Source: a virus | Taxonomy: Duplodnaviria; Heunggongvirae; Uroviricota; Caudoviricetes | Reading direction: 5' to 3' (one strand) | Length of the DNA stretch: 4,417 bases | IMG/VR virus record: IMGVR_UViG_2529292873_000012 | Shown here: positions 328-4,207 of the stretch, piece after piece | Layout: every line of letters starts with the position of its first letter | How positions within the stretch are numbered: the first letter of the stretch is position 1 | The notes under the pieces: model-generated | Told to the model about the DNA's origin: nothing | Seen by the model: the letters and a program-made list of their open reading frames with translations, nothing else | Database searches by the model: none | Program-made: the position numbers and the translations under genes

Positions 328-1322
328 GTGACCGTGAGAGCGCTACTGACCCCTGAAATTGCCCCGCGTATGGGGATCGTCTTGTTCAGACCCGGTTCAG
401 AGCTGATGCCCCTGTTTATGCAGGGGCGTGTCCTGCTGGAGCCTGAGCCGGAACGTTATTCATCTTTCGCCAGTGGTGCCGTTCCGGCAGCATCACAACC
501 GCTGGCGGATGATCCTGCCGTTCGGGCCGTGTTCCGCCATGAGGCGGTGATCCGTCGTGCTGGTGGCGTGGAATGCCTTGAGAGCTGGTTACTTCGTGAA
601 AAAGGCTGCCAGTGGCCTCATTCCGGATGGCACAGCGAGAACATGACCACAATGCGACACGCGCCGGGCGCAATCCGTCTGTGCTGGCACTGCGATAACC
701 TGCTTCGCGATCAGTTCACGGAACGTCTGGAGTCAATGGCAACGGATAACTGTGCCCGCTGGGTGTTGTCCGTAGTCCGTCGTGATCTCGGTTTTGATGA
801 CAGTCACGTTGTGACAATGCCTGAACTGTGCTGGTGGCTGGTTCGTAATGACCTGGCGGATGCCTTACCGGAAAGTGCAGCCCGTAAGGCCCTGAGATTA
901 CCGAAGCCTGTTGTGCCGTCTGTCACCCGGGAGAGTGACCTTGTGCCTTCGGTTCCTGCCACCAGCATTATCCAGGATAAAGCGAAAAAGGTGCTGGCGC
1001 TGAAAGTGGATCCGGAGTCGCCGGAGTCTTTTATGTTACGCCCAAACGTCGCCGCTGGGTTAATGAAAAGTACACGCGCTGGGTTAAGACACAGCCGTGT
1101 GCATGTTGTGGAAAGCCCGCTGATGATCCCCACCACCTGATAGGCCACGGTCAGTGTGGAATGGGTACAAAAGCGCATGACCTTTTTGTGTTGCCTTTGT
1201 GCAGAAAGCATCACGACGAGCTGCATGCGGATACCGTGGCATTTGAAGAGAAGTATGGCTCCCAACTGGAGCTGATATTTCGTTTTATCGATCGCGCGCT
1301 GGCAATTGGCGTACTGGCGTAA
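328..1322 (+). pseudogene. ydfU: YdfU/DUF968-family prophage protein, disrupted: body in frame +1 (328..1140), conserved C-terminal Cys/His motif in frame +3 (981..1322)
   Basis: Frame +1 ORF of 270 aa (CWHCDN motif) ends at TGA 1138-1140. Frame +3, open from 981 after TAA 978-980, encodes …FYVTPKRRRWVNEKYTRWVKTQPCACCGKPADDPHHLIGHGQCGMGTKAHDLFVLPLCRKHHDELHADTVAFEEKYGSQLELIFRFIDRALAIGVLA* ending at TAA 1320-1322, 13 nt before the Q start. The two frames overlap between 981 and 1140. Start is ambiguous (GTG 328, GTG 334 with GAGG at 325-328, or ATG 370). Confidence 0.55.
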
Positions 1323-1335
1323 GTGGAGAACGAGC

Positions 1336-2088
1336 ATGAACCTTGAAGCCTTACCGAAATATTACTCCCCGAAATCTCCAAAACTGAGCGATGACGCACC
1401 GGCGACAGGCTCTGGTGGTTTAACAATTACGGATGTGATGGCTGCGCAGGGGATGGTGCAGTCAAAAGCACCGCTTGGGTTTGCTTTATTCCTGGCAAAA
1501 GTTGGTGTTCAGGATCCTCAGTTTGCGATTGAAGGTCTGCTCAATTACGCGATGGCACTGGATAACCCGACATTGAATAAATTGAGTGAAGAAACCCGGC
1601 TACAGATCATTCCTTACCTTGTGAATTTTGCCTTTGCTGATTGTTCCAGGTCTGCGGCAAGTAAGGCTCGCTGTGAGCATTGTGCTGGTACTGGATTTCA
1701 TAATGTATTGCGCGAGGTGGTGAAACACTCCAGAAGCGGGGAATCTGTTATTAAGGAAGAGTGGGTGAAGGAACTATGTCAGCATTGTCATGGTAAGGGA
1801 GAAGTCAGCACAGCATGCAGAGGGTGCAAGGGTAAAGGTATTGTCCTGGATGAAAAAAGAACCCGGCTTCATGGCACGCCTGTTTATAAGGTTTGTGGGC
1901 GTTGCAATGGAAACCGGTTTAGCCGTTTACCAACCACACTGGCGCGGCTTCATGTCCAGAAGCTGGTACCAGACCTGACGGATTATCAGTGGTACAAAGG
2001 ATATGCAGATGTCATTGATAAACTGGTTACAAAGTGCTGGCAGGAAGAAGCATATGCAGAGATACAATTGAGAAAGGTGACAAGATAA
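1336..2088 (+). CDS. quuQ: Late-gene antitermination protein Q (QuuQ-like), 250 aa
   Basis: ATG at 1336 preceded by GGAG at 1325-1328 with a 7-nt spacer; the protein begins MNLEALPKYYSPKSPKLSDD and carries four CxxC pairs (CEHC, CQHC, CRGC, CGRC); stop TAA 2086-2088. Followed immediately by a pR'-like promoter and terminator. The ORF-track start at 1306 lacks an RBS. Confidence 0.85.
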   Translation: MNLEALPKYYSPKSPKLSDDAPATGSGGLTITDVMAAQGMVQSKAPLGFALFLAKVGVQDPQFAIEGLLNYAMALDNPTLNKLSEETRLQIIPYLVNFAFADCSRSAASKARCEHCAGTGFHNVLREVVKHSRSGESVIKEEWVKELCQHCHGKGEVSTACRGCKGKGIVLDEKRTRLHGTPVYKVCGRCNGNRFSRLPTTLARLHVQKLVPDLTDYQWYKGYADVIDKLVTKCWQEEAYAEIQLRKVTR

Positions 2089-2119: not shown

Positions 2120-2160
2120 TTGCATTTTTCAAAAAATATGGATAAGATTTTCCCAACGAT
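2120..2160 (+). promoter_or_regulatory. Late promoter pR'-like with sigma70-dependent pause element (qut region)
   Basis: -35 TTGCAT (2120-2125), 17-nt spacer, -10 TAAGAT (2143-2148), predicted start near 2155. The initial transcribed sequence AACGATGGG (2155-2163) matches the lambda pR' pause-inducing -10-like element as I recall it. Confidence 0.5.
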
Positions 2161-2195
2161 GGGCTTTGTATACCCGACGTTAAGAAAAAGTAGAA

Positions 2196-2221
2196 AACCC
2201 GCTGATGAGCGGGTTTTGTGC
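2196..2221. terminator. Rho-independent terminator, bidirectional: tR'-like for the short pR' transcript and terminator for the convergent cspF-like gene
   Basis: Stem CCCGCT (2198-2203) / AGCGGG (2208-2213), loop GATG, followed by TTTTGTGCTTT on + and preceded by an A-run (GAAAAAGTAGAAAA) that gives a T-run on the - strand. Confidence 0.7.
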
Positions 2222-2509
2222 TTTAAATGGGGCAATGGTAATGTTGAATCTCATCCCGGGACTCATGTCTGTTAACTTATTATTTAGCTGGTGACTTGGT
2301 TATTTGCCTGATGTTTAAAATGTTTTCTTCCAGTACAATGTCCCTAAACACAATGAGTCTGCTTATTATATTATTAGCAGAGCTATTACGGCCAAAGTAC
2401 AGCATAAGCTTTTAAAGCCAATCAACCAGTCATCAAGACAGACGGGGTTATTCATAAAAACTCTCCATGTGTGATCCGATGGGGCCTGAAATTAAAGCTT
2501 TAATATAGC

Positions 2510-2722
2510 TCATGAAAGGTAAACATTGGCAGCTGAAGGGCCACGCAGACCATTTATCCGGCAAAATTCCACGCGTAATCCGGTGGTAATTTCTTCTGCA
2601 TCGCGGAGATTGAGCGCTGAAACATGAAGCTGGACATCGATACGACCATCGGATGGGGTGATAAGACCCTTGCCGCTTTTGCCGTCAAAGGTTTTGACAA
2701 TTCCTGTCATTTTACGGGACAA
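2510..2722 (-). CDS. cspF: Cold-shock-like protein, CspF/CspH subfamily, 70 aa
   Basis: Translation [27 protein letters not shown]…[21 protein letters not shown] matches the CspF/CspH subfamily from memory. Divergent from the cspB-like gene as in Qin. Predicted start is TTG (2720-2722 on +) with AAGGA 7 nt upstream; an in-frame ATG lies 4 codons downstream. Stop TGA. Confidence 0.85.
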
Positions 2723-2861: not shown

Positions 2862-3022
2862 GTCGGTTTGAAGAACAGACGATATACGAAGTAGTTTACT
2901 AAAGCAGTTCTCATTTCAGGTGTTATTCACTTATTCCTTCTTTGAGTCTCTCCAATTAAGTACGAAGTCGTTTCTGTTATGCAAACCATTTATGCCGAAA
3001 GGCTCAAGTTAAGGAATGTAGA
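2862..3022 (+). promoter_or_regulatory. Long cspB 5' leader with cold-box-like and upstream-box elements
   Basis: GGTTTGAAGAACAGAC (2866-2881) resembles the cspA cold box GGTTTGACGTACAGAC; AAAGCAGT is conserved; the GCCGAAAGGC upstream box (2995-3004) precedes the AAGGA SD (3011-3015). Confidence 0.6.
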
Positions 3023-3238
3023 ATGTCAAATAAAATGACTGGTTTAGTAAAATGGTTTAACGCTGATAAAGGTTTCGGCTTTATTTCTCCTGTTGATGGT
3101 AGTAAAGATGTGTTTGTGCATTTTTCTGCGATTCAGAATGATAATTATCGAACCTTATTTGAAGGTCAAAAGGTTACCTTCTCTATAGAGAGTGGTGCTA
3201 AAGGTCCTGCAGCAGCAAATGTCATCATTACTGATTAA
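3023..3238 (+). CDS. cspB: Major cold-shock protein CspB-like, 71 aa
   Basis: [71 protein letters not shown] carries the RNP1/RNP2 motifs (KGFGFI, VFVHF); AAGGA SD 7 nt upstream; stop TAA 3236-3238. Confidence 0.9.
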
Positions 3239-3518
3239 AATTCATCGCTCGTCTGTATACGATAACGAAGAAGGCTGATGCCTGAGTAGAGATACGGACA
3301 GAGTAGTGAATATTGGATCTCTTTAATAAAAAATAAGGAGGTCCAATACATGAAACAATGGCTAGCATATTTGGCAAAATCTTAATCAGGAAAAGTATGC
3401 TAACCATTGTGGTGAAGTGCAGGTTTGCTGCATGAATAGTTTTACAGCAGAAGCTAACTGCTGGCATGGCAAAACAAAGTGCGTAAGTGGATGACTCCCA
3501 CAAAAAGCACCACAATCT

Positions 3519-3545
3519 CAAACCCGCTCAGGCGGGTTTTTTATT
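3519..3545. terminator. Rho-independent terminator (strong on +, weaker on -) between cspB-like and the zinc-ribbon gene
   Basis: Stem CCCGC (3523-3527) / GCGGG (3532-3536), loop TCAG, then TTTTTTATTAT; preceded by CAAA. Nearly identical in stem and 3' context to the terminator at 2196-2221. Confidence 0.7.
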
Positions 3546-3991: not shown

Positions 3992-4207
3992 ATGAAATCA
4001 ATGGATAAGTTAACAACAGGTGTTGCCTATGGCACATCGGCGGGTAATGCTGGTTTCTGGGCATTGCAGTTACTCGATAAAGTAACTCCGTCACAGTGGG
4101 CTGCAATCGGTGTGCTGGGTAGCCTGGTTTTTGGCCTGCTGACGTATCTGACAAATCTTTATTTCAAGATTAAAGAAGACAGGCGTAAGGCTGCGAGAGG
4201 AGAGTAA
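3992..4207 (+). CDS. essQ: Class II holin / pinholin, phage 21 S-like, dual-start motif, 71 aa
   Basis: [71 protein letters not shown] is very close to phage 21 S21 as I recall it. GAGGA SD at 3986-3990; two in-frame starts (ATG 3992 and ATG 4001, Met1 and Met4); stop TAA 4205-4207. The track ORF from 3917 is an unsupported N-terminal extension. Confidence 0.85.

Follow-up and report, generated by a model that had tools for sequence, protein, structure and literature searches.

A Q antiterminator gene raises the question of whether the DNA immediately downstream contains the late promoter on which the protein acts, and of what becomes of a transcript started there when Q is absent. We addressed this question for positions 2120-2221 of a phage DNA of 4,417 nucleotides, which is referred to here in its entirety as the window. 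An earlier note on this DNA had read the region as a lambda-type module, and the promoter TTGCAT-17-TAAGAT, the pause sequence and the hairpin that it described were all recovered exactly where it had placed them. Our data indicate that the region is very probably the cassette by which a Qin/SfV-type lambdoid prophage controls its late genes, and that it is homologous to the pR'-qut-tR' regions of lambda and P22. The anatomy of the sequence, its homology, its conservation across the family and a matching RNA 3′ end in K-12 were observed directly. The cassette is a well-supported member of a textbook system, and the first interpretation was essentially right.

The 4.4-kb window is the part of a Qin-type lambdoid prophage from which late gene expression is controlled. 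In it, a ydfU-family (DUF968) gene is followed by Q and by the cassette, whose -35 hexamer begins 31 nt past the stop codon of the PF03589 gene, in agreement with the proposed location directly downstream of Q. The ydfU-family gene adjoining Q contains a frameshift, for which reason this prophage copy may be decaying. Beyond cspF follow cspB with a cspA-type 5′ UTR, a ynfU-like gene with minus-strand orientation and the plus-strand holin gene, the latter 1.84 kb downstream of the predicted +1, with two minus-strand genes and the cspB unit with its terminator in between. The lysis genes thus lie downstream of the cassette on the same strand, and the holin gene is the predicted late-operon target of the Q-modified polymerase. 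The order Q - cspF - cspB - ynfU - holin is common to the window and the phages PhiR42_1 and 2H10, and the gene order of K-12 Qin likewise matches. The cassette stretch was found in approximately 45% of the complete E. coli genomes (2,459 of 5,426); a match to the whole window above ~96% was not detected among complete E. coli genomes. A permissive Rfam scan of the whole window gave nothing at 2100-2230, the hits being confined to cspB, which matched the cspA thermoregulator, and to two chance matches, and significant structure was not found in the region 2222-2395. The coordinates of all features are compiled in Table 1.

Table 1. Elements of the late-control region and their positions in the window
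Feature	Position	Strand	Basis or remark
Q antiterminator gene (250 aa)	1336-2088	+	Pfam PF03589, BLASTP against lambda Q, PDB matches
pR' -35 hexamer TTGCAT	2120-2125	+	Sequence; same hexamer annotated as pR' -35 in the phi80 record; invariant in 13 related phages and prophages
17-nt spacer TTTTCAAAAAATATGGA	2126-2142	+	In register with the lambda spacer, 11 of 17 nucleotides identical
Candidate Q-binding element	~2128-2140	+	Predicted from family-conserved spacer positions
pR' -10 hexamer TAAGAT	2143-2148	+	Sequence; TAAAAT in K-12 Qin
TTTCCC, 6-nt gap between -10 and +1	2149-2154	+	Sequence
Predicted +1 (A2155) and sigma70-dependent pause element AACGATGGG	2155-2163	+	Identity with lambda; family scan
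5′-terminal stem-loop of the leader RNA	2155-2181	+	Minimum-free-energy fold and family covariation
Predicted terminated leader RNA, 67 nt	2155-2221	+	Predicted +1 and Term-seq 3′ end
tR' intrinsic terminator, stem AAAACCCGCU / AGCGGGUUUU, loop GAUG, tail GUGC	2194-2221	+	Fold, compensatory changes, K-12 Term-seq
Same hairpin, minus-strand reading, followed by CUACUUUUUC	2185-2217	-	Terminator scan and fold
ynfS	2366-2455	-	Identical to K-12 YnfS
cspF	2510-2722	-	Converges on the cassette together with ynfS
First lysis gene, class II holin, essQ-like	3992-4207	+	Pfam PF04971, E = 4e-34

The gene preceding the cassette encodes a protein matching the Pfam family PF03589 (E = 3e-51), which has been equated with the Q-lambda family (PMC9388147); the family DnaJ_CXXCXGXG was matched as well, below the curated cut-off. 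In a BLASTP comparison, the protein aligned with lambda Q over its full length, including N- and C-terminal parts, with an identity of 34% (E = 3e-40) and a gap at residues 121-168. Matches were also obtained to the PDB entries 7UBM and 7UBN (solved Q-lambda structures), 4MO1 and 7UBJ. Judged by its sequence, the Q gene is intact and a member of the lambda family. Its product is a long form of Q with an insertion of ~48 amino acids in the zinc-ribbon arm and two extra CxxCxGxG motifs. Since phi80 and most of the relatives sampled possess the long form too, we regard it as a common variant and not as a novelty. The Q protein of phage Lys8385Vzw is 99.2% identical to that of the window.

Shortly after the Q stop codon, a sigma70-type promoter homologous to pR' was identified. 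The lambda pR' sequence fetched for comparison reads TTGACT-17-TAAATT-TGACTC-AACGATGGG, and the pause sequence of lambda given in the earlier note proved to be exact. When the stretch from -35 to +20 was aligned with lambda pR' in the same register, as the note had suggested, 34 of 55 nucleotides were identical. No other offset on either strand of the 1.5-kb lambda locus scored as high (mean 13.8, sd 3.4, next best 27), and the value lies 6 sd above the background. The promoter hexamers themselves are weak, agreeing with the consensus at only three of six (-35) and four of six (-10) positions, which is the reason why a generic promoter scan omitted 2120-2148.

Several positions of the spacer are conserved within the family, namely TTc at -27 to -25, aaa at -22 to -20 and TgG at -17 to -15. 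The Q-binding element (QBE) of lambda comprises 13 bp and is contacted at positions 1-4 and 11-13 (PMC9388147). The conserved nucleotides at about -27 to -25 and -17 to -15 are compatible with these contacted positions, and in the record of phi80 a Q-binding annotation occupies the corresponding part of the spacer. We infer that a Q-binding element resides in the spacer between -35 and -10; the candidate, TTCA...ATG in the window versus TTGA...TTG in lambda, exhibits partial similarity only.

The pause element is composed of a -10-like AACGAT at +1 to +6, which has A2 and T6, and of GGG at +7 to +9. The exact 9-mer AACGATGGG occurs a single time in the window, with ~0.03 occurrences expected in 8.8 kb. 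The corresponding element of P22 is AACGATGGA, and in the P22 record, where AACGATGG stands at the annotated start, the first A is marked as the "probable 5' terminus". By analogy with this homologous A, transcription in the window is predicted to begin with the first A of the pause element. The Cappable-seq supplement contained no entry near the expected start coordinates, and the locus was not mentioned in the RNET-seq sigma-pause paper and its supplements.

At lambda pR', the pause-site consensus T+14 N Y+16 G+17 stabilizes the scrunched paused complex (PMC9191641). The window does not have this consensus, but GTAT at +14 to +17, while TTTG sits at +11 to +14, so that the position of the pause is not precisely predictable. 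Lambda furthermore possesses a -35-like TTGACT 1 bp upstream of the pause element, which in the Q-loading complex becomes the new site of sigma region 4 (PMC9388147). This sequence was not found at -7 to -2 of the window, where TTTTCC agrees with it at three of six positions. Among close relatives the -7 to -2 stretch is the most variable promoter-proximal part, and it is not conserved family-wide; the TTGACT thus looks like a feature specific to lambda and P22 and not like one that defines the family. The designation as a lambda-type module is justified for promoter, pause element and terminator, but does not extend to the TTGACT beside the pause element nor to T+14 N Y+16 G+17.

The DNA behind Q genes was surveyed by a scan of one genome per species, which comprised 80 Q loci, 75 of them distinct. 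Exact AACGATGGG was found 38-88 nt past the Q stop in 35 of the 75 distinct loci, whereas in-gene and reverse-strand controls gave no exact AACGATGGG (~0.05 expected by chance). The 9-mer was present in 26 of 64 loci whose Q protein is at most 45% identical to that of the window, and it was kept even after Q genes sharing only 36-42% identity with the window Q, the flanking sequences being different. If up to two mismatches were allowed and A2 and T6 were kept, 57 of 75 loci contained the motif. The distance between the motif and the first intrinsic terminator had a median of ~68 nt (range 54-242), the usual leader being ~55-75 nt long. From this 75-locus scan we concluded that a short RNA is the norm in the family and that the motif is under selection; a coincidental AACGAT match, which the earlier note had considered, does not account for 35 of 75 loci against none in the controls. 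A strict regular expression (-35/-10/AACnnT) had caught only 31 of the 75 loci because many promoters of the family have a -10 hexamer agreeing at three of six positions, and a looser anchor was used afterwards.

Downstream of the pause element, 2194-2203 can pair with 2208-2217 to form a GC-rich hairpin of 10 bp, which is followed by UUUUGUGCUUU. The RNA 2155-2226 folds at -30.4 kcal/mol (z = -6.4). An intrinsic terminator is indicated by the hairpin itself, by compensatory changes in its stem and by an RNA 3′ end of K-12; in addition, the SfV and Ayreon records annotate its equivalent as a putative rho-independent terminator. The compensatory changes were detected in Salmonella phage 118970_sal3 and phage SKA5 (CCUCGC/GCGGGG versus CCCGCU/AGCGGG). 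RNAalifold applied to a MAFFT alignment of the close relatives yielded no compensatory pairs, since neither the divergent Salmonella terminator nor the variable loops had been aligned in register. On the plus strand the U-tract is interrupted (UUUUGUGC), and for this reason the hairpin was assigned to the minus strand by a generic scan for terminators. Being flanked by an A-tract and a U-tract, the hairpin is a bidirectional terminator, which in its minus-strand reading likely serves the converging ynfS-cspF unit; the K-12 Term-seq tables contain no 3′ end equivalent to this minus-strand terminator.

The leader of Qin, a cryptic prophage of K-12 that is presumably repressed, is identical to that of the window from +1 to +120. 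Term-seq data for K-12 (Adams et al. 2021, PMC7815308, Supplementary file 1) include a 3′ end at 1642356 (-), which was classified as 'orphan' and recorded under three growth conditions, with average reads of 103,591 and 55,368 in the two conditions shown. It maps to position 2221 of the window, the C in GGGUUUUGUGC, and the flanking sequence printed there is that of the window leader. The end is situated 8 nt past the GC stem, as expected for intrinsic termination, and within the interval 2217-2221 that had been predicted for it. Taking A2155 as the start, a terminated RNA of 67 nt results, which is close to the ~65 nt originally estimated. A Term-seq 3′ end could in principle also derive from a transcript starting upstream. 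The comparison of the RNA with the 6S RNA of lambda was appropriate regarding its kind, but not its length, which is 67 nt versus 194 nt in lambda, short leaders being the family norm.

A comparison with 13 closely related phages and prophages showed conservation all the way from the Q stop codon up to the terminator, past which homology is lost at once. The cassette behaves as a unit in these mosaic genomes. From inside Q to +15, the cassettes of SfV, mEp460, Ayreon and a Stx2c phage share 98-100% identity with the window. From -100 to +15 the window is 100% identical to the mEp460/Stx2c-phage type, while Ayreon differs by one base; from +15 to +120 it is 100% identical to K-12 Qin. Because the identity switches from the SfV/Stx2c type to K-12 Qin, the window is taken as a recombinant whose junction falls within the conserved AACGATGGGCTTTGTAT (2154-2171). 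Leader and terminator of the SfV type differ from the window from about +17 onward, where the window has the K-12 Qin version. While the SfV-type terminator has a one-sided U7 tract and faces no converging gene, that of the Qin type has an A-tract as well as a U-tract and faces ynfS-cspF.

With lambda the window shares a Q protein of the same family, the 17-nt spacer, the 6-nt gap between -10 and +1, the identical AACGATGGG at +1 to +9, an intrinsic terminator ahead of the lysis genes and an RNA 5′ end that can pair with +19 to +23. The differences concern the -35 hexamer (TTGACT in lambda, TTGCAT in the window), the TTGACT at -7 to -2 and the TNYG at +14 to +17, both present in lambda only, and the length of the leader. 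Moreover, the window Q has ~48 residues more in its zinc-ribbon arm, with which lambda Q contacts the QBE and sigma region 4; the terminator of the window is bidirectional, and an insert of 1.8 kb with cold-shock genes separates tR' from the holin gene. The records of P22 (P-late/gene 23) and phi80 (pR') show the same layout of pR', Q site, start and tR' with leaders of ~60-75 nt, though their leader bodies and terminator sequences are unlike those of the window. P22 resembles the window in its identical promoter and pause geometry and in lacking the T+14 N Y+16 G+17 consensus, but has a short-form Q and contains the TTGACT element. Phi80 has the -35 hexamer TTGCAT and a long-form Q in common with the window and differs in its pause-element variant AACGCT and a spacing that is one base longer.

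Start site, pause, Q binding and antitermination are predicted from these homologies, and the following course of events is proposed. The sigma70 holoenzyme would initiate at A2155 from TTGCAT-17-TAAGAT. Sigma region 2 would then bind again, this time to the non-template AACGAT (+1 to +6) together with GGG (+7 to +9), as a consequence of which the early elongation complex should pause within ~+12 to +17. Without Q, the polymerase would escape, and termination at the hairpin 2194-2217 would set free an RNA of 67 nt with C2221 as its last nucleotide. If Q is present, whose gene ends 31 nt upstream, the protein would bind the promoter spacer and load onto the paused complex, thereby creating a terminator-resistant polymerase. 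The modified enzyme could cross tR', the cspF/cspB insert and the cspB terminator and in this way reach the holin and lysis genes.

Other explanations of the region were weighed against this model. It might be argued that the hairpin is nothing but a bidirectional terminator separating early-right/Q transcripts from the converging ynfS-cspF transcripts, and that the promoter-like sequence and AACGAT have no function. The generic scans, which called a minus-strand terminator and no promoter at 2120-2148, fit this assumption, as do the A-tract and U-tract flanking the hairpin, and the Term-seq 3′ end alone is silent on the origin of the RNA. However, the in-register match to pR' of lambda and P22 is far above background, AACGATGGG is preserved after Q genes that are only 36-42% identical and have different flanks, and SfV, mEp460 and Ayreon retain promoter, pause element and terminator although no gene converges on them. 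As a 3′ end corresponding to the minus strand is moreover missing from the K-12 Term-seq tables, we consider a mere terminator very improbable. Still less can be said for a coding function. An open reading frame of 51 amino acids does extend from 2120 to 2275, and it is listed as 'hypothetical protein' in some phage records, e.g. that of PhiR42_1. But the TTG with which it starts is at the same time the beginning of the -35 hexamer, among relatives it varies from 24 to >47 amino acids without conservation of the C-terminus, in phage 2H10 the frame is altered by a U-tract that differs by 1 nt, and it passes through the strong terminator hairpin. That the region encodes this protein is practically negligible as a possibility.

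A different matter is whether the 67-nt RNA, besides being the leader of a late promoter, acts in trans as a regulatory RNA of the lysogen, like StxS from the pR' of a Shiga-toxin phage. StxS is likewise a short constitutive RNA terminated at tR' that originates from a Q-controlled late promoter in the lysogen, and its authors propose pR' leaders as a general raw material for sRNAs (PMC7547250). For StxS, Hfq binding and targets were demonstrated (PMC7547250), whereas a sequence relationship between StxS and the window RNA was not found. The abundance of the K-12 RNA end under three conditions would suit such a role, and an A-rich, ARN-like tract (AAGAAAAAGUAGAAAA) lies between the two hairpins of the leader. 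RNA of the cspF-ydfT intergenic region does occur in Hfq RIL-seq chimeras, but cspF.ydfT.IGR, a region given without strand, obtained a classifier sRNA score of 0.0024, with two interactions, and its place within the chimeras was target-like. Between Qin-type and SfV-type cassettes the central part of the leader is not conserved either, the U-tail is short, and the RNA has no match in Rfam. The 66-nt prophage sRNA HnrS (EcOnc10-12) is unrelated, since it lies elsewhere in its prophage, in strain Sakai with the Rz and terminase genes on either side and in an orientation opposite to that of the late operon. PasD/STnc100, sRNAs linked to PF03589 Q genes, have been reported to be absent from K-12 and gave no Rfam match in the window. 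Taken together, an additional function in trans is unlikely, albeit less so than a mere terminator.

With the late-control cassette, a function can be assigned to DNA that otherwise has no annotation or is wrongly listed as 'hypothetical protein', and an abundant 'orphan' Term-seq 3′ end of K-12 is explained as the tR'-terminated leader of the Qin late promoter. Across Enterobacterales, exact AACGATGGG is the commonest variant after genes of the Q-lambda type, and leaders of ~55-75 nt are the rule, to which the 194 nt of lambda are the exception. The textbook mechanism is left unchanged. Possibly of interest to specialists are the -35-like element for sigma region 4, which is absent here and in most relatives, and a covarying stem-loop at the 5′ end of the RNA.

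This stem-loop is the sole element of the cassette that might be new, a published description not having been found in a limited literature search. The stem of the window joins 2155-2158 to 2178-2181 and 2160-2163 to 2173-2176 and is only modestly stable (-6.5 kcal/mol, z = -1.3). The same fold occurs at the 5′ end of the leaders of lambda, P22, phi80 and most relatives, with the transcribed pause element as its 5′ arm. The downstream arm covaries with +3/+4, AACG being combined with CGUU, AAUG with CAUU and AACA with UGUU. In non-redundant leaders, which are mutually related and in which the position of the 3′ arm was picked by best fit, CGTT at +12 to +32 was present in 16 of 16 leaders of the AACG type versus 2 of 13 others (p = 2e-6), TGTT in 6 of 6 of the AACA type versus 3 of 23 (p = 2e-4), and CATT in 4 of 7 of the AATG type versus 2 of 16 (p = 0.045). 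The helix starting at +1 comprised 4.3 bp on average compared to 2.7 bp in shuffled sequences, and the observed value was reached by none of 200 shuffles. A covariance model of the 5′ stem recovered only members with similar sequences and missed the window's own type; the covariation was therefore tested by motif tables, shuffles and pair counts on the model-fitted alignment. In this alignment, three of five pairs were changed on both sides, while controls with a slid register collapsed.

The most plausible role of the 5′ stem-loop would be protection of the short as well as the long transcript at the 5′ end. It is conceivable, though we hold it with some doubt, that the RNA copy of the pause element (AACGAUGGG, of which the first 4-9 nt are concerned) is kept complementary to ~+19 to +27 as a functional third constraint, beyond a mere by-product of the pause sequence. 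If this is true, both the short leader and the very long late mRNA could for instance be shielded by the structure, at their triphosphate 5′ ends, from RppH/RNase E, in lambda as well as in the window.

The 5′-terminal nucleotides of the pR′ transcript (from nt 1 up to nt 4-9) are paired with a segment at about +19 to +27, giving a stem-loop whose 5′ arm is the transcribed pause element. Besides the window, lambda and P22, the structure was found in many of the Q loci obtained by the one-genome-per-species scan (L021-L100). Its 3′ arm covaries with the pause-element variant, the combinations being AACG/CGTT, AATG/CATT and AACA/TGTT. A limited literature search revealed no prior account of a 5′-terminal stem-loop of the pR′ transcript.

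Coordinates of features in the pR′ cassettes
Feature	Sequence	Coordinates	Strand	Remarks
5′-terminal stem-loop	window	2155-2181		
5′-terminal stem-loop	lambda (L004)	788-812		
5′-terminal stem-loop	P22 (L015)	1502-1526		
51-aa ORF	window	2120-2275	+	in the PhiR42_1 record and some others, annotated as "hypothetical protein"
tR′ hairpin, converging-strand reading	window	2185-2217	-	

L036, L039, L047, L055 and further Xenorhabdus/Photorhabdus loci contain CCCATCAT as the -10 region (segment considered, about -20 to +9 of pR′). Since this sequence comes close to being the reverse complement of AACGATGGG, the pause element that follows about 6 nt further on, promoter and pause element of these loci constitute an imperfect inverted repeat, whereas the window cassette does not possess such a repeat.

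The leader of the window also harbors a recombination junction (2154-2171). Upstream of it, the window shares 100% identity with the mEp460/Stx2c-phage type but only about 80-91% with K-12, while downstream of it the identity is 100% to the K-12 prophage Qin and about 50% to the mEp460 type. In phage 640R1, Q is only 40% identical and the promoter is different, but the leader is homologous from +6 on. Hence leader and terminator are able to move independently of Q and its promoter. The 51-aa ORF has the TTG of the -35 hexamer as its first codon, and its reading frame crosses the terminator. Since its length and C-terminus differ between relatives, the ORF is very likely an artefact of annotation.

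Compared to lambda Q, the Q protein of the window contains an insertion of about 48 aa (window 1681-1830, residues about 116-165), which carries two extra DnaJ-like CxxCxGxG motifs scoring just under the Pfam cut-off. The insertion resides within the zinc-ribbon arm, the part which in lambda Q touches the Q-binding element and sigma region 4. This long form of Q is common to most sampled relatives. Cassettes with long-form Q lack the lambda -35-like TTGACT beside the pause element. The ydfU-family (DUF968/HNH) gene located within 328-1322 is broken into two ORFs (328-1140 and 1161-1322) due to one A absent from a CCCAAA(A)CG run at about 1043, as judged by the intact Ayreon gene. It is either a pseudogene of a decaying prophage or the result of a sequencing error.

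Only in Qin-type cassettes is the tR′ hairpin flanked by both an A-tract and a U-tract, and there the genes ynfS-cspF converge on it; SfV-type cassettes, in contrast, have a U7 tract on one side only. For K-12, the Term-seq tables list no converging-strand 3′ end at this hairpin. They contain a second 3′ end on the same strand as tR′, 168 nt past it (K-12 1642188 (-), window about 2389 (+)), which is antisense to ynfS and was recorded in one condition with 87,904 reads. This end implies either read-through of tR′ or an additional start between 2222 and 2389. No significant structure was predicted for the region from 2222 to about 2389.

Further downstream (window 2862-3254, +), cspB has a full-length cspA-type thermoregulator 5′ UTR (Rfam RF01766, 158.8 bits). 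According to the Term-seq tables, very abundant K-12 3′ ends lie inside this 5′ UTR and also about 110 nt past the cspB stop codon (window about 3350 (+)), the latter well upstream of the intrinsic terminator at 3520-3545.
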